From a virus (Duplodnaviria; Heunggongvirae; Uroviricota; Caudoviricetes): a DNA stretch of 37,777 bases. The notes below the pieces were generated by a model. The model was not told the DNA's origin. It did no database searches and worked only from the letters and a program-made list of their open reading frames with translations. Below, in pieces: positions 4,938 through 32,896 of the stretch. A program made the translations under genes and the position numbers. The stretch's first letter is position 1; each line of letters starts with the position of its first letter. Location of the stretch: IMG/VR virus record IMGVR_UViG_2869924733_000005, positions 1 through 37,777 of that record; one strand, written 5' to 3'.

Positions 4938-5366
4938 ATGGGTTTTCGTAGCGCATCAATTCTTACGTTGATTATTAGTGGGATTATTATCGGGTGCACT
5001 GATGCTGTATCGACAAATTATCATGACCGTACATCATATTACTCCGATAAAGCAATAGAGACACAGTATGTGAGTTCATCTGAACGTACTTCTGATGTTA
5101 GTGAGGATATCCGTCTGTATGCCCATCAAATCAAGAGCGCCATCGAAAAACAGTTCGGGGATGCGAGTAAGTATTCAGGAAAAGAGTGTACACTGAGAAT
5201 GCATATGGCCCCGAATGGCCTTCTACTGGAGGTTAAAAGAGAAAGTGGAGACCTCGATTTATGTCGTGAAGCGATGAATGCGATAAAGAATGCTGATATA
5301 CCTGCCCCCCCTTCGCCGGAAGTATATAAAGTATTTCAAAATGGGGTGCTGGATTTTAAACCCTGA
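4938..5366 (+). CDS. lipoprotein with TolA C-terminal (domain III)-like fold
   Basis: Lipobox IIGC; C-terminal HQIKSAIEKQFGDASKYSGKECTLRMHMAPNGLLLEVKRESGDLDLCREAMNAIKNADIPAPPSPEVYKVFQNGVLDFKP aligns with remembered E. coli TolA C-terminus. Confidence 0.7.
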   Translation: MGFRSASILTLIISGIIIGCTDAVSTNYHDRTSYYSDKAIETQYVSSSERTSDVSEDIRLYAHQIKSAIEKQFGDASKYSGKECTLRMHMAPNGLLLEVKRESGDLDLCREAMNAIKNADIPAPPSPEVYKVFQNGVLDFKP

Positions 5367-16745: not shown

Positions 16746-19700
16746 ATGAGTGTGGCGACATTACGTGAACTGATTATTAAAATCTCGGCAAATTCCCGGT
16801 CATTCCAGTCAGAGATCTCCCGGGCTTCGCGTATGGGGCAGGATTACTACCGTACCATGCAGAACGGAGGCCGGCAGTCCGCTGCTGCATCCCGTGAAAT
16901 GCGGCGTGCACTGGCAGAAGTGACGGATCAGATAAATACAGCTAAATCTTCGGCACTGAATATGGCGGGGGCATTTGCCGGGGCTTTTGCTACCGGTCAT
17001 CTTATTTCTCTCGCCGATGAGTGGAATTCAGTAAATGCCCGTCTGAAGCAGGCCTCACAGTCCAGTGATGATTTTCAGGCATCACAGCGTGAATTAATGG
17101 CGATTAGCCAGAGAACGGGGACGGCGTTTTCTGATAACGCCAGCCTTTTTGCCCGTTCTGCAGCTTCCATGCGGGAGTATGGTTACAGTTCTGAGGAGGT
17201 ACTGAAAGTCACCGAGGCGATCTCCACGGGCCTGAAATTATCCGGTGCCAGTACAGCAGAAGCCAGTTCGGTGATCACGCAGTTCAGTCAGGCACTGGCG
17301 CAGGGAGTGCTGCGCGGTGAAGAGTTTAACTCGGTGAATGAGAACGGCGATCGTGTTATTCGTGCGCTGGCTGCGGGAATGGGGGTTGCCCGTAAGGATC
17401 TGAAGGCCATGGCGGATAACGGAAAACTGACCGCCGATAAGGTTGTTCCTGCACTGATTAGTCAGCTTGGGGCATTACGTGATGAATATGCGGCAATGCC
17501 TGATACGGTTTCATCCTCTGCAACCAAAGTTGAAAACGCCTTTATGGCCTGGGTTGGTGGTGCGAACGAGGCAAGCGGAGTGACGAAGACGCTCTCCGGT
17601 ATGCTGAATGGTATTGCAGGCAATATTGACACTGTGGCAACCGCTGCCGGTGCTCTGGTTGCCGTCGGGGTAGCCCGATATTTTGGCAATATGGCGTCTT
17701 CTGCTGGATCTGCAACTGCCGGATTAATTACTGCAGCCAGAAACGAAGTGGCTCTTGCGGAAGCGCAGCTCCGGGGGACACAGATAGCAACAGCCAGGGC
17801 GCGTGCGGCGGTTTATTGTGCGCAACAGGCGGTTGTTGCTGCTCGCGGTACCGAAAGGCAGGCAGCCGCAGAAGCGAAACTGGCTGCTGCCCAGGCCTCA
17901 CTTACCCGTAATATTGCGGCCAGAACAGCAGCACAGACAACGCTGAATACTGTCACGTCAGTGGGAAGTCGTCTGTTAAGTGGAGCACTGGGACTGGTTG
18001 GTGGGGTGCCGGGGCTTGTCATGCTGGGGGCCGCGGCCTGGTACACGATGTATCAGAATCAGGAGCAGGCCAGAGAATCTGCACGCCAGTATGCCGCAAC
18101 AATCGACGAAATTCGCCAGAAAACGTCGGCAATGTCGCTTCCTGAAGCGTCAGATAATGAGGAAAAGACGCGGCAGGCACTGGAGGAACAAAATCGCCTG
18201 ATTAGCGAACAGGAAGGAAAAATTCGCGGACTGAAAAATCAAATTGCTGATTATCAACGTTGGCTTGATGAAAGTTCGCAGAGTGGTTCGGGTGCTGAAA
18301 TCATCCTTAAAGGGCTTGCCGAAGCAACAAATCAACTGGCAGTTGAACAATCCCGTCTCACTCAAATGCAGGGCAAAGCGCAATCCATTCAGGATGTGCT
18401 TGCCGGGCTGGAGGAGCGACGGGTGGCGTTGATCCGTCAACAGGCGGCGGAACAAAACAAAGCGTATCAGTCCCTGTTGATCATGAATGGGCAGCATACC
18501 GAGTTTAATCGCCTTCTTGGGCTTGGTAATGAATTACTTCAGCAGCGACAGGGGCTGGTGAATGTACCGTTACGGCTACCACAGGCAACCCTGGATGATA
18601 AACAGCAGACCGCACTGAATAACAGCAAGCGCGAACTGGCTCTGTCCCGCCTTAAGGGGGAAGCGCGTGAGCGTGCCCGACTGGGCTATGCTGCGGATGA
18701 TCTCGGCTTTGTGGGAGAGGCGTATCAGACAGCCAGACAGAATTATATCAATAACTCACTGGATGCCTGGCGAAATAACCAGGCAAATAAACCCAAAGCG
18801 CATAAAAAGACCGAAGCGGAAAAAACAGAAGATATTTATAAACGGCTGATTAAACAGCAAAAAGAACAGATAGCACTGGCAGGGCAGAATACTGAACTGG
18901 CTAAGATGAAATATCAGGTCAGTCAGGGCGAATTATCAACCCTGTCAGAAGCGCAGAAAAAAACGCTTTTGCAGAATGCAGCACTCATCGACCAGAAAAA
19001 GATTCGTGAGCAGCTTGCTGCGTATGAGAGCAGTCTGGCGGACAGTAATGCCAGTGCCCGGGCATCTGACGACGCGCAGTTGCTGGGATATGGTGAAGGC
19101 TCACGGATGCGTGAACGACTCCAGGAAATGTGGAGTATCCGGCAGACGTTTGAGCAGAAAAATAACGAGCTGCTGAGACAGTATCAGGCCGGAGAAATTG
19201 AAGAAGCCCTGTGGAAACAGGAGAAAGAACTGAATAAAAAATATCTGGAAGAGCGTCTCAGCGATCAGCAGGATTATTATGCAAAGGCCGATGCTTTACG
19301 TAATAACTGGAATGCCGGACTCCAGGAGGGACTGACCAACTGGGCAGACAGTGCCACCGATTATGCTTCACAGGCGGCAGATGCTGTCGTTTCCACGATG
19401 GACGGGCTGGTATCAAATATTTCCGATGCACTGGCCGGGAATGTTGTGGACTGGCGAAACTGGGGGAGTTCAATTCTCCAGGAAGTTTCAAAAATTCTGA
19501 TGAACGCTGCCATCGTTAACGGGCTGAAGTCACTTTCCAAAAGCATGTCCGGTGCCGGAGGATGGCTTGGTACGGTCGGCGACTGGCTTTCCGGTGCAGT
19601 GGCAAACGCAAAAGGTGGTGTTTATACATCGGCAAATCTGAGTGCTTACAGTAACACCATTGTGGATACCCCGACGTATTTTGCTTTTGCGAAAGGTGCC

Positions 19701-19898
19701 GGGCTGATGGGCGAGGCCGGGCCTGAAGCTATCATGCCACTGACCCGGGCAGCGGACGGCTCTCTTGGTGTCAGATCCATTGGCAATGTGAATGGTGGCG
19801 GGGGATTTGTTTATTCTCCCGTGTATCACATCAGTATTCAGAATAAAGGGAGCAATGGCGAGATAGATACGCAGTCAGCCAGGGGCTGGTGGATCTGA
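16746..19898 (+). CDS. tail tape measure protein
   Basis: 1050 aa, Ala/Gln-rich coiled-coil, position after G/G-T. Confidence 0.9.
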   Translation: MSVATLRELIIKISANSRSFQSEISRASRMGQDYYRTMQNGGRQSAAASREMRRALAEVTDQINTAKSSALNMAGAFAGAFATGHLISLADEWNSVNARLKQASQSSDDFQASQRELMAISQRTGTAFSDNASLFARSAASMREYGYSSEEVLKVTEAISTGLKLSGASTAEASSVITQFSQALAQGVLRGEEFNSVNENGDRVIRALAAGMGVARKDLKAMADNGKLTADKVVPALISQLGALRDEYAAMPDTVSSSATKVENAFMAWVGGANEASGVTKTLSGMLNGIAGNIDTVATAAGALVAVGVARYFGNMASSAGSATAGLITAARNEVALAEAQLRGTQIATARARAAVYCAQQAVVAARGTERQAAAEAKLAAAQASLTRNIAARTAAQTTLNTVTSVGSRLLSGALGLVGGVPGLVMLGAAAWYTMYQNQEQARESARQYAATIDEIRQKTSAMSLPEASDNEEKTRQALEEQNRLISEQEGKIRGLKNQIADYQRWLDESSQSGSGAEIILKGLAEATNQLAVEQSRLTQMQGKAQSIQDVLAGLEERRVALIRQQAAEQNKAYQSLLIMNGQHTEFNRLLGLGNELLQQRQGLVNVPLRLPQATLDDKQQTALNNSKRELALSRLKGEARERARLGYAADDLGFVGEAYQTARQNYINNSLDAWRNNQANKPKAHKKTEAEKTEDIYKRLIKQQKEQIALAGQNTELAKMKYQVSQGELSTLSEAQKKTLLQNAALIDQKKIREQLAAYESSLADSNASARASDDAQLLGYGEGSRMRERLQEMWSIRQTFEQKNNELLRQYQAGEIEEALWKQEKELNKKYLEERLSDQQDYYAKADALRNNWNAGLQEGLTNWADSATDYASQAADAVVSTMDGLVSNISDALAGNVVDWRNWGSSILQEVSKILMNAAIVNGLKSLSKSMSGAGGWLGTVGDWLSGAVANAKGGVYTSANLSAYSNTIVDTPTYFAFAKGAGLMGEAGPEAIMPLTRAADGSLGVRSIGNVNGGGGFVYSPVYHISIQNKGSNGEIDTQSARGWWI

Positions 19899-20384
19899 AC
19901 GACAGCAGGGTTGTGTCAATTATGCAGTCATCACGTCGGGACGGAGGATTATACAGTGCCTGAGCCTGAAGTTTTTAACTGGATCCCCCGCGAGGGGATG
20001 GAGACGACACGAAAGCCATCTGTTATTACGGTAAAGTTCGGTGACGGATATGAACAGTGAGGTAGCCTGAGTTTAACGGACACTCCTTCCTGAAATAGAA
20101 TGGCATCAGAAGGAGCTAATAATGAGCAGAAAAACCCAACGTTACTCTAAAGAGTTCAAAGCCGAAGCTGTCAGAACGGTTCTTGAAAATCAACTTTCGA
20201 TCAGTGAAGGCGCTTCCCGATTATCCCTTCCTGAAGGCACTTTAGGACAATGGGTTACCGCCGCCAGAAAAGGGCTCGGTACTCCTGGCTCCCGCACGGT
20301 GGCTGAACTGGAATCTGAAATTCTGCAACTGCGTAAGGCGTTAAATGAAGCTCGCCTTGAGCGAGATATATTAAAAAAAGCAAC

Positions 20385-21605
20385 TGTAGATTCAATTGGT
20401 CAACGCAACAGTTATGTGAAAACATGGGGTTGCGGAGGTTTTTTGAATGAGACGAACATTTACAGCAGAGGAAAAAGCCTCTGTTTTTGAACTATGGAAG
20501 AACGGAACAGGCTTCAGTGAAATAGCGAATATCCTGGGTTCAAAACCCGGAACGATCTTCACTATGTTAAGGGATACTGGCGGCATAAAACCCCATGAGC
20601 GTAAGCGGGCTGTAGCTCACCTGACACTGTCTGAGCGCGAGGAGATACGAGCTGGTTTGTCAGCCAAAATGAGCATTCGTGCGATAGCTACTGCGCTGAA
20701 TCGCAGTCCTTCGACGATCTCACGTGAAGTTCAGCGTAATCGGGGCAGACGCTATTACAAAGCTGTTGATGCTAATAACCGAGCCAACAGAATGGCGAAA
20801 AGGCCAAAACCGTGCTTACTGGATCAAAATTTACCATTGCGAAAGCTTGTTCTGGAAAAGCTGGAGATGAAATGGTCTCCAGAGCAAATATCAGGATGGT
20901 TAAGGCGAACAAAACCACGTCAAAAAACGCTGCGAATATCACCTGAGACAATTTATAAAACGCTGTACTTTCGTAGCCGTGAAGCGCTACACCACCTGAA
21001 TATACAGCATCTGCGACGGTCGCATAGCCTTCGCCATGGCAGGCGTCATACCCGCAAAGGCGAAAGAGGTACGATTAACATAGTGAACGGAACACCAATT
21101 CACGAACGTTCCCGAAATATCGATAACAGACGCTCTCTGGGGCATTGGGAGGGCGATTTAGTCTCAGGTACAAAAAACTCTCATATAGCCACACTTGTAG
21201 ACCGAAAATCACGTTATACGATCATCCTTAGACTCAGGGGCAAAGATTCTGTCTCAGTAAATCAGGCTCTTACCGACAAATTCCTGAGTTTACCGTCAGA
21301 ACTCAGAAAATCACTGACATGGGACAGAGGAATGGAACTGGCCAGACATCTAGAATTTACTGTCAGCACCGGCGTTAAAGTTTACTTCTGCGATCCTCAG
21401 AGTCCTTGGCAGCGGGGAACAAATGAGAACACAAATGGGCTAATTCGGCAGTACTTTCCTAAAAAGACATGTCTTGCCCAATATACTCAACATGAACTAG
21501 ATCTGGTTGCTGCTCAGCTAAACAACAGACCGAGAAAGACACTGAAGTTCAAAACACCGAAAGAGATAATTGAAAGGGGTGTTGCATTGACAGATTGAAT
21601 CTACA
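20385..21605 (+). mobile_element. IS30 (1221 bp), 2-bp TSD AC, inserted inside IS600-like orfA
   Basis: Ends TGTAGATTCAATTGGTCAACG...GTTGCATTGACAGATTGAATCTACA; length exactly 1221 bp. Confidence 0.9.
20447..21598 (+). CDS. insI: IS30 transposase
   Basis: 383-aa ORF MRRTFTAEEKASVFELWKNGTGFSEIANILG... with DDE region; matches remembered IS30 transposase. Confidence 0.9.
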   Translation: MRRTFTAEEKASVFELWKNGTGFSEIANILGSKPGTIFTMLRDTGGIKPHERKRAVAHLTLSEREEIRAGLSAKMSIRAIATALNRSPSTISREVQRNRGRRYYKAVDANNRANRMAKRPKPCLLDQNLPLRKLVLEKLEMKWSPEQISGWLRRTKPRQKTLRISPETIYKTLYFRSREALHHLNIQHLRRSHSLRHGRRHTRKGERGTINIVNGTPIHERSRNIDNRRSLGHWEGDLVSGTKNSHIATLVDRKSRYTIILRLRGKDSVSVNQALTDKFLSLPSELRKSLTWDRGMELARHLEFTVSTGVKVYFCDPQSPWQRGTNENTNGLIRQYFPKKTCLAQYTQHELDLVAAQLNNRPRKTLKFKTPKEIIERGVALTD

Positions 21606-21682
21606 ACAGCGTATTTTGCACAGGAGTCGCTGAAAAATACGCGTTAATCGAACAATGGCGACAACAATTTCCCATTGAAGCG

Positions 21683-22501
21683 ATGTGTCAGGTATTTGGT
21701 GTATCCAGGAGCGGTTATTACAACCGGGTACAGCATGAACCCTCAGACAGAAAACAAAGTGATGAGCGGCTAAAACTGGAGATTAAGGTGGCACATATCC
21801 GCACTCGCGAAACATATGGAACCCGGCGGCTCCAGACGGAGCTGGCAGAGAATGGCATCATCGTTGGTCGTGACCGACTGGCACGTCTTCGTAAGGAGCT
21901 AAGGCTACGCTGTAAGCAGAAACGCAAGTTCAGAGCGACTACGAACCCGAACCACAATCTGCCAGTTGCGCCAAATCTGTTGAACCAGACGTTCGCTCCT
22001 ACAGCACCAAATCAGGTCTGGGTGGCGGACCTGACGTATGTTGCCACACAGGAGGGATGGTTGTACCTCGCTGGCATCAAAGATGTTTATACGTGCGAAA
22101 TTGTCGGCTACGCCATGGGAGAGCGCATGACAAAAGAGCTGACAGGTAAAGCCCTGTTTATGGCGCTCAGGAGCCAGCGCCCACCTGCCGGGCTAATCCA
22201 CCACTCTGATCGAGGTTCACAGTACTGCGCATACGATTACCGGGTCATACAGGAGCAGTCTGGTCTGAAAACATCAATGTCGCGTAAAGGTAACTGTTAC
22301 GACAACGCTCCGATGGAAAGCTTCTGGGGAACGCTGAAAAATGAGAGCCTGAGCCACTATCGTTTTAATAACCGGGATGAAGCCATCTCAGTAATACGGG
22401 AATACATTGAGATTTTCTACAATCGTCAGCGTCGTCACTCTCGTCTGGGGAATATCTCCCCGGCAGCCTTCAGGGAGAAATATCATCAGATGGCTGCTTA
22501 A
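21683..22501 (+). CDS. IS600-like orfB (DDE transposase domain; normally made as orfAB fusion)
   Basis: IS3-family integrase core (HSDRGSQY...); -1 frame relative to orfA. Confidence 0.75.
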   Translation: MCQVFGVSRSGYYNRVQHEPSDRKQSDERLKLEIKVAHIRTRETYGTRRLQTELAENGIIVGRDRLARLRKELRLRCKQKRKFRATTNPNHNLPVAPNLLNQTFAPTAPNQVWVADLTYVATQEGWLYLAGIKDVYTCEIVGYAMGERMTKELTGKALFMALRSQRPPAGLIHHSDRGSQYCAYDYRVIQEQSGLKTSMSRKGNCYDNAPMESFWGTLKNESLSHYRFNNRDEAISVIREYIEIFYNRQRRHSRLGNISPAAFREKYHQMAA

Positions 22502-22786
22502 AAAAAGAACAAATGGTAGTGTCCGCTATTGCCAGTACACCTCACAGCGACGGGCTGGTGGTCTGAATGCGGATCTGAAAACGTTTAAACCGGTGTTTCG
22601 TGTCACAGATGAATATTCCCGTGCTGCGCTGGACAGTTTTTTATCCCGTCATGCCGGGATACGTGCTTTTTTGTGGCGTCCGCCAAAACACAACAGAATC
22701 GTCCGGGTTGTCTGCAGGGAGTGGAGTATTTCGGATAATGCCATGTATACCGATTTTAACTGTACCTTTGAAGAGGTCACTCACTG

Positions 22787-23485
22787 ATGCAGGATATACA
22801 GCAGGAAACACTGAATGAGTGTACAAAAGCGGAGCAATCCGCGCTGGTCGTGCTCTGGGAAGTCGATCTGACAGAAGTCGGCGGAGAGCGTTATTTTTTC
22901 TGTAATGAGCAGAACGAAAAAGGTGAGCCGGTCACCTGGCAGGGGCGACAGTATCAGGCGTACCCCATCCAGGGGAGCGGATTTGAGATGAACGGTAAAG
23001 GAGCCAGCGCCAGGCCAACTCTGAAAGTCTCTAATCTGCACGGCATGGTCACCGGGATGGTGGAAGATTTGCAGAGTCTGGTCGGCGGAATGGTGGTCAG
23101 GCGTAAGGTTTACGCCCGTTTTCTGGATGCGGTGAACTTCGTCAACGGAAACAGCGACGCCGATCCGGAGCAGGAGGTGATCAGCCGCTGGCGCATCGAG
23201 CAGTGCAGCGAACTGAGCGCGGTCAGTGCCTCCTTTGTGTTCTCCACGCCGACGGAAACGGACGGCGCTGTTTTTCCGGGACGTATCATGCTGGCCAACA
23301 CCTGCACCTGGACCTATCGCGGCGATGAGTGCGGTTATAGTGGTCCGGCGGTCGCGGATGAATATGACCAGCCGACGTCCGATATCACGAAGGATAAATG
23401 CAGCAAATGCCTGAGCGGTTGTAAGTTCCGCAATAACGTCGGCAACTTTGGCGGCTTCCTTTCCATTAACAAACTTTCGCAGTAA
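22787..23485 (+). CDS. L: minor tail protein L
   Basis: 232 aa; matches lambda L; C-terminal Cys cluster. Confidence 0.85.
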   Translation: MQDIQQETLNECTKAEQSALVVLWEVDLTEVGGERYFFCNEQNEKGEPVTWQGRQYQAYPIQGSGFEMNGKGASARPTLKVSNLHGMVTGMVEDLQSLVGGMVVRRKVYARFLDAVNFVNGNSDADPEQEVISRWRIEQCSELSAVSASFVFSTPTETDGAVFPGRIMLANTCTWTYRGDECGYSGPAVADEYDQPTSDITKDKCSKCLSGCKFRNNVGNFGGFLSINKLSQ

Positions 23486-23490
23486 ATCCC

Positions 23491-24233
23491 ATGACAGAAA
23501 CAGAATCAGCGATTCTGGCGCACGCCCGGCGATGTGCGCCAGCGGAGTCGTGCGGCTTCGTGGTGAGAACGCCGGAGGGAGAAAAATATTTTCCCTGCGT
23601 GAATATCTCCGGTGAGCCGGAGGAGTATTTCCGGATGTCGCCGGAGGACTGGCTGCGGGCAGAAATGCAGGGTGAGATTGTGGCGCTGGTCCACAGTCAT
23701 CCCGGTGGTCTGCCCTGGCTGAGTGAGGCTGACCGGCGGCTGCAGGTGCAGAGTGATTTGCCGTGGTGGCTGGTCTGCCGGGGGCGATTCATAAGTTCCG
23801 CTGTGTGCCGCATCTCACCGGGCGGCGCTTTGAGCACGGGGTGACGGACTGTTACACACTGTTCCGGGATGCTTACCATCTGGCGGGGATTGAGATGCCG
23901 GATTTTCATCGCGGGGATGACTGGTGGCGTAACGGCCAGAATCTCTATCTGGATAATCTGGAGGCCACAGGTCTGCATCAGGTGCCGTTGTCATCAGCAC
24001 AACCGGGCGATGTGCTGCTGTGCTGTTTTGGTTCATCGGTGCCGAATCATGCCGCCATTTACTGTGGTGACGGCGAGCTGCTGCACCATATTCCTGAACA
24101 ACTGAGCAAACGAGAGAGGTACACCGACAAATGGCAGCGACGCACACACTCCCTCTGGCGTCACCGGGCATGGCATGCATCTGCCTTTACGGGGATTTAC
24201 AACGATTTGGCCGCCGCATCGACCTTCGTGTAA
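23491..24233 (+). pseudogene. K: tail assembly protein K (MPN/JAMM + NlpC/P60) with frameshift near 23785
   Basis: K homology continues from frame 1 (…DLPWWLVCRG) into frame 0 (…IHKFRCVPHLTGRRFEH…); consistent with 1-bp deletion after G-run. Confidence 0.6.
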
Positions 24234-24778
24234 AAACGGGGGCTGAAGCCATCCGGGCGCTGTCCACACAGGTCCCGGCATTTCGTCAGAAACTGAGTGA
24301 CGGCTGGTATCAGGTACGGATTGCCGGGCGTGATGCAGGTGAAACCGAATTGTCTGCCCGTCTTAATGAGCCGCTGGCAAATGGTGCCGTGATCCACATC
24401 GTGCCGCGTCTGGCGGGAGCTAAAAGCGGCGGTGTGCTTCAGGTGGTGCTGGGGGCGGCGCTGATTGCGGTGGCATGGTGGAACCCTGTGGGCTGGCTGG
24501 GTGCCGCGGCTGTATCGGGCATGTATGCGGCAGGGGCCAGTATGATCCTGGGCGGAGTGGCGCAGATGCTGGCACCGAAAGCCAGGACGCCCACGGCAGC
24601 AAGTACAGATAACGGCAAACAGAACACCTGTTTCTCCTCACTGGATAACATGGTTGCCCAGGGCAATGTTCTGCCTGTTCTGTACGGTGAAATGCGCGTG
24701 GGGTCACGCGTGGTTTCTCAGGAGATCAGCACGGCAGATGAAGGGGATGGTGGTCAGGTTGTGGTGATTGGTCGCTGA
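24131..24778 (+). CDS. I: tail assembly protein I
   Basis: MAATHTLPLASPGMA...GEMRVGSRVVSQEISTADEGDGGQVVVIGR matches lambda I. Confidence 0.8.
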   Translation: MAATHTLPLASPGMACICLYGDLQRFGRRIDLRVKTGAEAIRALSTQVPAFRQKLSDGWYQVRIAGRDAGETELSARLNEPLANGAVIHIVPRLAGAKSGGVLQVVLGAALIAVAWWNPVGWLGAAAVSGMYAAGASMILGGVAQMLAPKARTPTAASTDNGKQNTCFSSLDNMVAQGNVLPVLYGEMRVGSRVVSQEISTADEGDGGQVVVIGR

Positions 24779-24795
24779 TGCAAAATGTTTTATGT

Positions 24796-24824
24796 GAAAC
24801 CGCCTGCGGGCGGTTTTGTCGTTT
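24796..24824 (+). terminator. hairpin between I and J (possible attenuator)
   Basis: gaaaccgcctgcgggcggttt followed by TGTCGTTT. Confidence 0.35.
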
Positions 24825-24835
24825 ATGGAGCGTGA

Positions 24836-28251
<3,416 letters not shown>

Positions 28252-28288
28252 AATTGTTATAACACATATAAGGGCACCAGAAATGGTG

Positions 28289-29713
28289 TAATGCCGTTCA
28301 GTTAAGGATCAGTTGACCGATCCAGTGGCTGTGTAAGAATCCGGAAACGCTCACTTGTTTCCGGATTTTTTTATGCACATTGGACAGGCTCTTGATCTGG
28401 TATCCCGTTACGATTCTCTGCGTAACCCACTGACTTCTCTGGGGATTACCTCGACCCCGAACTCATCTCTCGTTGCCTTGCCGAATCAGGTACTGTAACG
28501 CTACGCAAGCGCCGTCTTCCCCTCGAAATGATGGTCTGGTGTATTGTTGGCATGGCGCTTGAGCGTAAAGAACCTCTTCACCAGATTGTGAATCGCCTGG
28601 ACATCATGCTGCCGGGCAATCGCCCCTTCGTTGCCCCCAGTGCCGTTATTCAGGCCCGCCAGCGCCTGGGAAGTGAGGCTGTCCGCCGCGTGTTCACGAA
28701 AACAGCGCAGCTCTGGCATAACGCCACGCCGCATCCGCACTGGTGCGGCCTGACCCTGCTGGCCATCGATGGTGTGTTCTGGCGCACACCGGATACACCA
28801 GAGAACGATGCAGCCTTCCCCCGCCAGACACATGCCGGGAACCCGGCGCTCTACCCGCAGGTCAAAATGGTCTGCCAGATGGAACTGACCAGCCATCTGC
28901 TGACGGCTGCAGCCTTCGGCACGATGAAGAACAGCGAAAATGAGCTTGCTGAGCAACTTATAGAACAAACCGGCGATAACACTCTGACGTTAATGGATAA
29001 AGGTTATTACTCACTGGGACTGTTAAATGCCTGGAGCCTGGCGGGAGAACACCGCCACTGGATGATACCTCTCAGAAAGGGAGCGCAATATGAAGAGCTC
29101 AGAAAACTGGGTAAAGGCGATCATCTGGTGAAGCTGAAAACCAGCCCGCAGGCACGAAAAAAGTGGCCGGGACTGGGAAATGAAGTGACAGCCCGCCTGC
29201 TGACCGTGACGCGCAAAGGAAAAGTCTGCCATCTGCTGACGTCGATGACGGACGCCATGCGCTTCCCCGGAGGAGAAATGGCGGATCTGTACAGTCATCG
29301 CTGGGAAATCGAACTGGGATACAGGGAGATAAAACAGACGATGCAACTGAGCAGGCTGACGCTGAGAAGTAAAAAGCCGGAGCTTGTGGAGCAAGAGCTG
29401 TGGGGTGTCTTACTGGCTTATAATCTGGTGAGATATCAGATGATTAAAATGGCGGAACATCTGAAAGGTTACTGGCCGAATCAACTGAGTTTCTCAGAAT
29501 CATGCGGAATGGTGATGAGAATGCTGATGACATTGCAGGGCGCTTCACCGGGACGTATACCGGAGCTGATGCGCGATCTTGCAAGTATGGGACAACTTGT
29601 GAAATTACCGACGAGAAGGGGAAGGGCCTTCCCGAGAGTGGTAAAGGAGAGGCCCTGGAAATACCCCACAGCCCCGAAAAAGAGCCAGTCAGTTGCTTAA
29701 CTGACTGGCATTA
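28289..29713 (+). mobile_element. IS4 (1425 bp; one base short of canonical), flanked by direct repeat CACCAGAAATGGTG
   Basis: Terminal IRs TAATGCCGTTCAGTTAAGG.../...CTTAACTGACTGGCATTA; 14-bp direct repeat 28275-28288 and 29714-29727. Confidence 0.85.
28377..29700 (+). pseudogene. insG: IS4 transposase with frameshift in G-run near 28441
   Basis: N-terminus [24 protein letters not shown] then out of frame; remainder from [17 protein letters not shown]... matches IS4 transposase in another frame. Confidence 0.65.
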
Positions 29714-29759
29714 CACCAGAAATGGTGCCTTTTTTATTGCAGAAAAGCGAGAGGTAATT

Positions 29760-30412: not shown

Positions 30413-31157
30413 GTGGGGTGAATATGGCAGTAAAGATTTCAGGTGTACTGAAAGACGGCACAGGAAAACCGGTACAGAACTGCACAATCCAGCTGAAAGC
30501 AAAACGTAACAGCACCACGGTGGTGGTGAACACGCTGGCCTCAGAAAATCCGGATGAAGCCGGGCGTTACAGCATGGACGTTGAGTACGGTCAGTACAGC
30601 GTTATTCTGTTGGTGGAAGGATTCCCGCCGTCACATGCCGGGACCATCACCGTGTATGAAGATTCCCGACCCGGTACGCTGAATGATTTTCTCGGTGCCA
30701 TGACGGAGGATGATGCCCGTCCGGAGGCTCTGCGCCGTTTTGAACTGATGGTGGAAGAGGTGGCGCGTAACGCGTCCGCGGTGGCACAGAACACGGCAGC
30801 CGCGGAGAAGTCAGCCGGCAATGCCGGCACATCTGCCCGTGAGGCGGCAATCCATGCGACTGATGCTGCAGGCTCAGCACGCGCAGCCAGCACGTCAGCC
30901 GGACAGGCCGCTTCGTCGGCTCAGTCAGCGTCTTCCAGCGCAGGAACGGCATCAACAAAGGCCACTGAAGCGGAAAAAAGTGCTGCCGCTGCAGAGTCCT
31001 CAAAAAGTGCGGCGGCCACCAGTGCCGGTGCGGCGAAAACGTCAGAAACGAATGCCGCAGCGTCACTAGACTGGCCCCCTGAATCTCCAGACAACCAGTA
31101 TCACTTAAATAAGTGATAGTCTTAATACTAGTTTTTAGACTAGTCATTGGAGTACAG

Positions 31158-31523
31158 ATGATTGATGTCTTAGGGCCGGAGAAACGCAGACGGCGTACCA
31201 CACAGGAAAAGATCGCAATTGTTCAGCAGAGCTTTGAACCGGGGATGACGGTCTCCCTCGTTGCCCGGCAACATGGTGTAGCAGCCAGCCAGTTATTTCT
31301 CTGGCGTAAGCAATACCAGGAAGGAAGTCTTACTGCTGTGGCCGCCGGAGAACAGGTTGTTCCTGCCTCTGAACTTGCTGCCGCCATGAAGCAGATTAAA
31401 GAACTCCAGCGCCTGCTCGGCAAGAAAACGATGGAAAATGAACTCCTCAAAGAAGCCGTTGAATATGGACGGGCAAAAAAGTGGATAGCGCACGCGCCCT
31501 TATTGCCCGGGGATGGGGAGTAA
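31158..31523 (+). CDS. insC: IS2 InsC (orfA)
   Basis: [41 protein letters not shown]... matches IS2 orfA. Confidence 0.85.
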
Positions 31524-32386
31524 GCTTAGTCAGCCGTTGTCTCCGGGTGTCGCGTGCGCAGTTGCACGTCATTCTCAGACGAACCGATGACTGGATGGAT
31601 GGCCGCCGCAGTCGTCACACTGATGATACGGATGTGCTTCTCCGTATACACCATGTTATCGGAGAGCTGCCCACGTATGGTTATCGTCGGGTATGGGCGC
31701 TGCTTCGCAGACAGGCAGAACTTGATGGTATGCCTGCGAACAATGCCAAACGTGTTTACCGGATCATGCGCCAGAATGCGCTGTTGCTTGAGCGAAAACC
31801 TGCTGTACCGCCATCGAAACGGGCACATACAGGCAGAGTGGCCGTGAAAGAAAGCAATCAGCGATGGTGCTCTGACGGGTTCGAGTTCTGCTGTGATAAC
31901 GGAGAGAGACTGCGTGTCACGTTCGCGCTGGACTGCTGTGATCGTGAGGCACTGCACTGGGCGGTGACTACCGGCGGCTTCAACAGTGAAACAGTACAGG
32001 ACGTCATGCTGGGAGCGGTGGAACGCCGCTTCGGCAACGATCTTCCGTCGTCTCCAGTGGAGTGGCTGACGGATAATGGTTCATGCTACCGGGCTAATGA
32101 AACACGCCAGTTCGCCCGGATGTTGGGACTTGAACCGAAGAACACGGCGGTGCGGAGTCCGGAGAGTAACGGAATAGCAGAGAGCTTCGTGAAAACGATA
32201 AAGCGTGACTACATCAGTATCATGCCCAAACCAGACGGGTTAACGGCAGCAAAGAACCTTGCAGAGGCGTTCGAGCATTATAACGAATGGCATCCGCATA
32301 GTGCGCTGGGTTATCGCTCGCCACGGGAATATCTGCGGCAGCGGGCTTGTAATGGGTTAAGTGATAACAGATGTCTGGAAATATAG
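31481..32386 (+). CDS. insD: IS2 InsD (orfB transposase)
   Basis: 301-aa DDE transposase ORF overlapping insC. Confidence 0.85.
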
Positions 32387-32896
32387 GGGCAAATCCAGTC
32401 ACAACAATCAGCAGCCACTTCTGCATCCACCGCGACTACGAAAGCGTCAGAAGCTGCCACCTCAGCCCGGGATGCGGCGGCCTCAAAAGAGGCAGCGAAA
32501 TCATCAGAAACGAACGCATCCTCGAGCGCCAGTAGCGCAGCTTCCTCGGCAACGGCGGCAGGAAATTCCGCGAAGGCGGCAAAAACGTCCGAGACGAACG
32601 CTAAGTCTTCTGAGACGGCAGCGGGACAGAGCGCCTCAGCTGCGGCAGGCTCAAAAACAGCGGCTGCGTCGTCTGCCAGTGCCGCGTCAACAAGTGCCGG
32701 GCAGGCCTCAGCCAGTGCCACCGCCGCCGGAAAATCGGCAGAAAGCGCCGCATCATCCGCTTCAACAGCCACAACAAAGGCTGGCGAAGCCACTGAGCAG
32801 GCCACGGCAGCAGCGAGGTCAGCTTCCGCAGCGAAGACATCCGAAACGAACGCGAAAGCGTCGGAAACCCGTGCAGAATCCTCAAAAACGGCAGCG

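Follow-up and report, generated by a model that had tools for sequence, protein, structure and literature searches.

IS30 within IS600 within tail gene M of a cdt-carrying lambdoid prophage: the anatomy and possible history of a nested insertion

When one insertion sequence (IS) lies inside a second, and the second inside a gene, how much does the nesting reveal of the order in which they arrived? The question is raised by a 37,777-nucleotide stretch of viral DNA of the class Caudoviricetes (IMG/VR record IMGVR_UViG_2869924733_000005, positions 1 to 37,777, hereafter ‘the window’), where the minor tail gene M of a lambdoid prophage is split by an IS3-family element that is itself split by IS30. 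An initial annotation, made from the sequence alone, called the outer element ‘IS600-like’ and proposed that M was hit first and that IS30 then struck the element lying there. We hold with high confidence that the locus is a gene-killing nested transposon insertion, IS30 in IS600 in tail gene M of a decaying, cdt-carrying lambdoid prophage. The order of the two events is a separate matter, for which the nesting has to be set beside other copies of the same pair of elements.

The boundaries were checked by reading positions 19800-22950 of the window, together with a scripted check of repeats, duplications and excision. IS30 occupies 20385-21605 on the + strand (1221 bp). It begins TGTAGATTCAAT... 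and ends ...ATTGAATCTACA. Of the 26 positions in its terminal inverted repeats (20385-20410 and 21580-21605), 23 agree, and a 2-bp duplication, AC, stands on either side of it (20383-20384 and 21606-21607). The outer element runs from 20058 to 22544 (2487 bp) and comes to 1264 bp once IS30 and one AC are taken away; it is bounded by a 3-bp duplication, CAG, the left copy of which (20055-20057) is codon 34 (Gln) of M and the right copy of which lies at 22545-22547. Its left arm (20058-20384, + strand, nt 1-327 of the element) holds the left inverted repeat, a truncated orfA from 20122 and the A7G frameshift run at 20373-20380, and its right arm (21608-22544, + strand, nt 328-1264) holds orfB, a 272-residue open reading frame (ORF) at 21683-22501, and the right inverted repeat. 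The limits that the initial annotation had set for both elements, with their AC and CAG duplications, were reproduced to the base, and the sequence check likewise bore out its placing of IS30 within orfA and of the break in M after ...GDGYEQ. A search within the window found a single IS600 and a single IS30, with no further copies of either.

Excision in silico followed by re-translation, which the annotation had put forward as a check, restored the frames of both orfA and M. The 5' fragment of M (19956-20057, + strand) begins at a GTG and comprises codons 1-34; the 3' fragment (22548-22787, + strand) comprises codons 35-113 and the stop, and overlaps the ATG of L at 22787. Removal of the whole insert with one CAG joins ...GDGYEQ to RRAGGLNADL... 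and gives a gpM of 113 amino acids, which covers positions 1-107/108 of Pfam Phage_min_tail (PF05939) with 109 bits against a cut-off of 39; no NCBIfam model matched the restored M. The GTG start at 19956 is favoured over the ATG at 19998, which corresponds to the annotated start of one intact M homologue, because the PF05939 match begins at residue 5. M is flanked by the tape-measure gene H (TIGR01541) and by L (TIGR01600), and its intact homologues, annotated ‘phage tail protein’, are placed between the tape-measure gene and L in the same way. The gene shares with lambda M the order H-M-L and the coverage of the whole family profile, but here it is disrupted after residue 34, and H, K and J nearby are also frameshifted. 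For the empty site reconstructed in silico (911 nt), 891 E. coli genomes give an alignment in one unbroken piece to tape-measure, tail-protein and L regions, with 99.1% as the best identity and a 1-nt deletion in H as the sole indel. With M truncated after 34 of its 113 residues, the prophage is predicted to be unable to make gpM.

What are the two elements? The outer one can be read as IS600 itself rather than merely IS600-like, because the restored 1264 bp match annotated IS600 end to end: they align over their full length (1-1264), at 99.5-99.8%, to copies labelled ‘IS3-like element IS600 family transposase’ on plasmids of Shigella and of enteroinvasive E. coli. The IS3-family assignment of the initial annotation stands, and its label is sharpened by this identity. 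IS600 was first described in Shigella sonnei, and a full-length copy is found in 247 plasmid records. The present copy has in common with the others a length of 1264 bp without IS30, a 3-bp duplication, and an orfA and orfB in -1 phase with an A7G slippery run. Its imperfect terminal inverted repeats start TGAGGT... and match at about 20 of 29 end positions, and the right arm scores 331 bits with NCBIfam NF033516 (cut-off 160). When IS30 and one AC are excised, an orfA of 100 codons is recovered, with orfB in -1 phase 3' of the run, and IS600 copies without IS30 carry the annotation ‘programmed frameshift’. It differs from them in the IS30 that it contains, in the predicted absence of the OrfAB transposase, in the rare allele 445C (Arg15 in the 272-residue orfB product) and in two private single nucleotide polymorphisms (SNPs), 700T and 1197G.

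IS600 would normally make OrfAB by -1 frameshifting at the A7G run. IS30 splits the element between nt 327 and 328, only 4 nt 3' of that run, so that the last 12 codons of orfA and the orfA-orfB fusion would be lost, both ends of the element being kept. What is left of orfA is a chimeric ORF of 122 amino acids (20122-20490, + strand; Pfam HTH_Tnp_1), in which the first 87-88 codons run on into the left end of IS30. Because orfA cannot fuse to orfB, no OrfAB is expected, and this IS600 is predicted to be non-autonomous and movable only with transposase from another IS600 copy.

The inner element is intact and potentially active. Its transposase gene (20447-21598, + strand) encodes 383 amino acids, scores 276 bits against the NCBIfam IS30-family model NF033563 (cut-off 80), contains Pfam HTH_38 and rve, and is identical in DNA sequence to the coding sequence that yields WP_001254932.1. 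Copies that bear the annotation ‘IS30-like element IS30 family transposase’, one of them in a K-12 derivative, match the whole element at 99.9-100%, and the IS30 of eleven comparison loci (L001, L003 and L032-L040) is 100% identical to it. With the IS30 of E. coli K-12 (insI) it shares its 1221 bp, 23/26 repeats, 383-residue transposase and 2-bp duplication; the element itself shows no difference, and its location alone differs.

IS elements are classic sites of misassembly, and the window does contain a probable homopolymer indel (a frameshift in tail gene K at about 23779, absent from short-read drafts), so it may be asked whether copies were mis-joined and the nesting at M is unreal. We give this next to no chance. 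Positions 17787-27787 of the window agree throughout (100%) with CP027027.1 and at 99.8% with CP026824.1, and the nested structure is present in both of these independent complete assemblies. Four independent draft contigs start in the right end of IS600, joined to CAG and the 3' fragment of M; the duplications at both levels of nesting are perfect; and the same composite occurs in more than 1000 genomes. The draft-contig junctions and the independent complete assemblies are the grounds on which an artefact at M was rejected. Because of the two complete records and the four draft contigs, the structure can be taken as real and specific to a lineage. No nested insert in M was found among 5426 complete E. 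coli genomes or among phage records, and the exact 34-nt junction of M with IS600 had no match in genome, metagenome and viral contig collections. Because nothing outside the CP027027.1 / CP026824.1 group was found to have it, the junction may serve as a lineage marker. The host of origin of the prophage is probably Shigella, and the surrounding lambdoid prophage is some 97.5% similar to E. coli prophages.

The pairing of the two elements, as distinct from its place in M, is ordinary: annotated records of both elements, and of exactly this combination, already exist for more than 1000 genomes. When a 200-nt junction probe was compared with the 5426 complete E. coli genomes, IS30 was found in IS600 at the same nucleotide and in the orientation of the window in 1276 of them, and inverted at identical junction nucleotides in 330; an uninterrupted IS600 site was found in 1638. 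The left IS600-IS30 junction is present in K-12 derivatives, and an index of public assemblies has an ORF identical to the chimeric 122-residue one in 14,496 of its blocks. From many E. coli genomes BLAST of the region recovered the entire 2487-bp composite as a single piece with 99.6-99.7% identity, in a prophage exoribonuclease gene, beside an STY4851/ECs_5259 gene, beside a type VI secretion sheath gene and on pO157-like plasmids, and the lengths and IS30 junctions of the recovered composites were all alike. What the M copy has in common with the E. coli composites, which occur on pO157-like plasmids, in a sat island, in prophages and, in K-12, as IS30D beside an IS600 fragment, is the nucleotide of insertion, the AC duplication, the orientation and the 2487 bp. 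What sets it apart is its location in M, found only in the CP027027.1 / CP026824.1 lineage, and its IS600 arms, which are of the Shigella-type allele and not of the E. coli type.

E. coli FORC 064 (NZ_CP022664.1) has both orientations in one genome, the same as in the window at 2418046-2420533 and the inverted one at 2027813-2028012. There is also a third level of nesting at three loci (L024, L025 and L037), where more insertion elements lie within the IS30 or the IS600 arms to give composites of 3801, 3740 and 3405 bp, the outer 3-bp duplications still being perfect.

The dual targeting of IS30 includes insertion into near-palindromic hot spots, with a 2-bp duplication (PMC9333248), and the IS600 site is likewise near-palindromic and flanked by a 2-bp duplication. 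With the duplicated AC at its centre, the 24-mer TAAAAAAAGCAACAGCGTATTTTG is self-complementary at 14 of its 24 positions, and it ranks 16th of the 1241 24-mers of IS600 in this respect (top 1.3%). Two other IS3-family elements also carry IS30 at the homologous position (ATATTAAAAA(AA)G + 4 nt). One is in BL21(DE3) (L009, 2982-3041), where the flank reads ...ATATTAAAAAAAGCCGT|IS30, and the other is at the right flank of K-12 IS30D (L008, a K-12 derivative, 5322-5366), which reads ...ATATTAAAAAGGCTAC|IS30. Taken together, these sequences indicate that the IS600 site is a recurrent near-palindromic hot spot for IS30, used in both orientations. A strong target of this kind means that identical nested structures arise repeatedly.

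K-12 IS30D is bordered on one flank by the left arm of an IS600 and on the opposite flank by an IS911-like left arm in inverted orientation. Such flanks suggest a recombination between two IS30 copies, each of them once in a site of this type. The IS911 of K-12 is interrupted by IS30A (PMC9333248).

We think it fairly probable that IS30 systematically targets the near-palindromic stretch 3' of the frameshift A-run in IS3-family elements. The three elements hit would be IS600, the IS911-like element and the third element in BL21. By landing there IS30 would disable the transposase of another element and create non-autonomous composites that may still spread. Such targeting would account for the presence of IS30 inside IS600 in about 30% of complete E. 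coli genomes, and the insertion at the M locus would be one further instance. The recurrent landing of IS30 beside the frameshift site of IS3-family elements is a small, testable point on interactions between mobile elements.

The site has a further oddity in an E. coli genome with a K-12 KpLE2-type locus (L041, NZ_CP069996.1). Here a 1264-bp IS600 without IS30 has TGTAG in place of AGCGT at nt 328-332 (locus positions 1701-1705), directly after the IS30 target, and the left end of IS30 starts with these same 5 nt. The change resembles a footprint left when IS30 was excised or converted, or else a variant imitating an IS30 end.

Where did IS30 meet IS600? Nesting proves that IS30 entered an existing IS600, and to this extent the order given in the initial annotation stands; that this took place within M is not established, given composites at at least eight loci. 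Nesting tells which element entered which, and is silent on where the inner event took place, because an element may still move after its disruption if both ends are intact. The composites have duplications of their own at at least eight unrelated loci (CAG at M, and CGC, AAC, GGA, GGT, CAC, CTAC and GTA), and M could therefore have received the composite whole. IS30 would then have entered IS600 elsewhere, and the 2487-bp composite would have been copied into M by means of OrfAB from another IS600. The identical length and identical junctions of the composites behind these 3-4 bp duplications are what such copying would produce, as are the several composite copies in one Shigella genome. GCA_000815495.1 has four IS30-bearing copies of the rare IS600 allele, none of that allele having been seen there without IS30, and Shigella-type hosts offer many sources of IS600 transposase (9-15 places per pINV plasmid). 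However, given the hot spot, two sequential hits explain every such locus equally well, and three positions set the M copy apart from all other composites sampled. IS3-family transposases act preferentially in cis, as work on IS911 has indicated, a preference that disfavours the movement of a non-autonomous element. We give transposition as a unit somewhat less than an even chance. The alleles 169T and 980T had been considered as markers of a single composite lineage, which would have spoken for this route, and were rejected since IS30-free E. coli copies of IS600 carry both.

The sequence of events in the initial annotation requires that IS600 alone went into M, duplicating CAG, and that IS30 later transposed into it at the hot spot, duplicating AC. 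The recurrence of the hot spot, entered in either orientation at one and the same nucleotide, and at the homologous site in other IS3-family elements, makes such a second hit credible. Three E. coli loci are moreover found in both states. At the exoribonuclease locus the same CGC duplication occurs with IS30 (L001) and without it (L046); at the sat locus the marker 1238T is common to the IS30-bearing state (L020) and to IS600 alone (L045); and at the KpLE2 locus the marker 95A is common to both states (L008 and L041). IS30 thus appears able to be gained or lost in place, because these three loci occur with and without it. The arms of the composites resemble the local IS30-free alleles of IS600, with 169T, 445T, 667T and 980T in E. 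coli and 169C, 445C, 667C and 980C in Shigella. Finally, the M copy has SNPs of its own in its arms (700T and 1197G, present in no other copy sampled, and 232C, in no other composite sampled), and its IS30 has none and is identical to the common IS30. We put this strict order, by transposition at both steps, only just short of an even chance.

A third route would leave IS600 first in M, as the initial annotation had it. A resident IS600 could have gained IS30 with no transposition into this copy, if it underwent homologous recombination with an IS600::IS30 elsewhere in that genome. Gene conversion of this kind would give identical junctions and orientation at every locus, and would explain both the loci found in two states and the identical IS30 parts beside varying arms. 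It would have to be confined to a tight tract, since 232C lies just 95 nt from the junction on its left side and 700T lies 372 nt from it on its right side; we regard this route as improbable.

On balance, the entry of IS30 into an IS600 already resident in M, whether by transposition or by gene conversion, is slightly favoured. Several points temper this. IS600 alone in M was not found in relatives among the genomes, phage records and contig collections searched. By exact-protein look-up, the rare orfB allele of the window occurs in 10 places, with IS30 in 8 of them and in the same orientation in 7 of those 8, so that many orientation-biased hits would be needed in this Shigella sub-lineage if each was separate. 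The IS600-alone states at the three E. coli loci need not be ancestral and could have arisen by later loss of IS30. The asymmetry in SNPs, three in the IS600 arms and none in IS30, is weak (p of about 0.13 under equal rates). The match to a hot spot rests on palindromy and recurrence and not on a published consensus, the literature on an IS30 hot-spot consensus or on IS600::IS30 having yielded general statements only. Against transposition as a unit, in turn, no second composite with the haplotype of the M copy was found. As to the effect of the insertion, a loss of phage function is read from the gene structure of a prophage that has other lesions too.

These other lesions concern the genes on either side of M. 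In H, positions 19872-19898 contain a 1-nt deletion in a run of G (GGGG, as against GGGGG in the closest intact homologue), which replaces the last 22 or so residues by WWI*. The deletion is probably real because CP027027.1 and CP026824.1 have it in common. An exact-protein look-up of the 1050-residue tape-measure product found no record, and the public gene call is 1048 amino acids. In tail gene K (23491-24233; JAB and NlpC/P60) a G is missing at about 23779, which divides it into ORFs of 117 and 156 amino acids; two draft contigs of the same lineage (L013 and L014) have the G and an intact K of 247 amino acids, and the frameshift may reflect either an assembly error in the homopolymer or a mutation peculiar to the strain. 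The tail-tip gene J (24839-28251) is split at 27211-27214 into ORFs of 791 and 346 amino acids, which cover positions 1-788 and 792-1163 of the lambda_TipJ profile. This split is probably real, since a further draft contig (L015) has the same 791-residue call.

Beyond J the prophage has taken up further insertion elements. An IS4-family element (about 28270-29732) lies between J and lom, with 37-nt inverted ends and an ORF of 390 amino acids that contains Nterm_IS4 and DDE_Tnp_1; the contigs L013 and L014 stop at 28296, as expected at a repeat. An IS2-like element of the IS3 family (about 31076-32389; orfA 31113-31523, orfB 31481-32386) with 33-nt inverted ends lies in the tail-fibre gene, the N-terminal domain of which is at 30418-31116 and the C-terminal part at 33146-34612. 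The insertion in M is thus one of at least four insertion elements which, with three frameshifts, mark the prophage as defective, and from these lesions it is judged to be decaying, as is usual in Shigella-type genomes. It is a cdt-carrying lambdoid prophage because the cytolethal distending toxin genes cdtA, cdtB and cdtC follow the tail-fibre assembly gene. The three genes occupy 35569-37777, 3' of that gene, and cdtC is cut by the end of the window.

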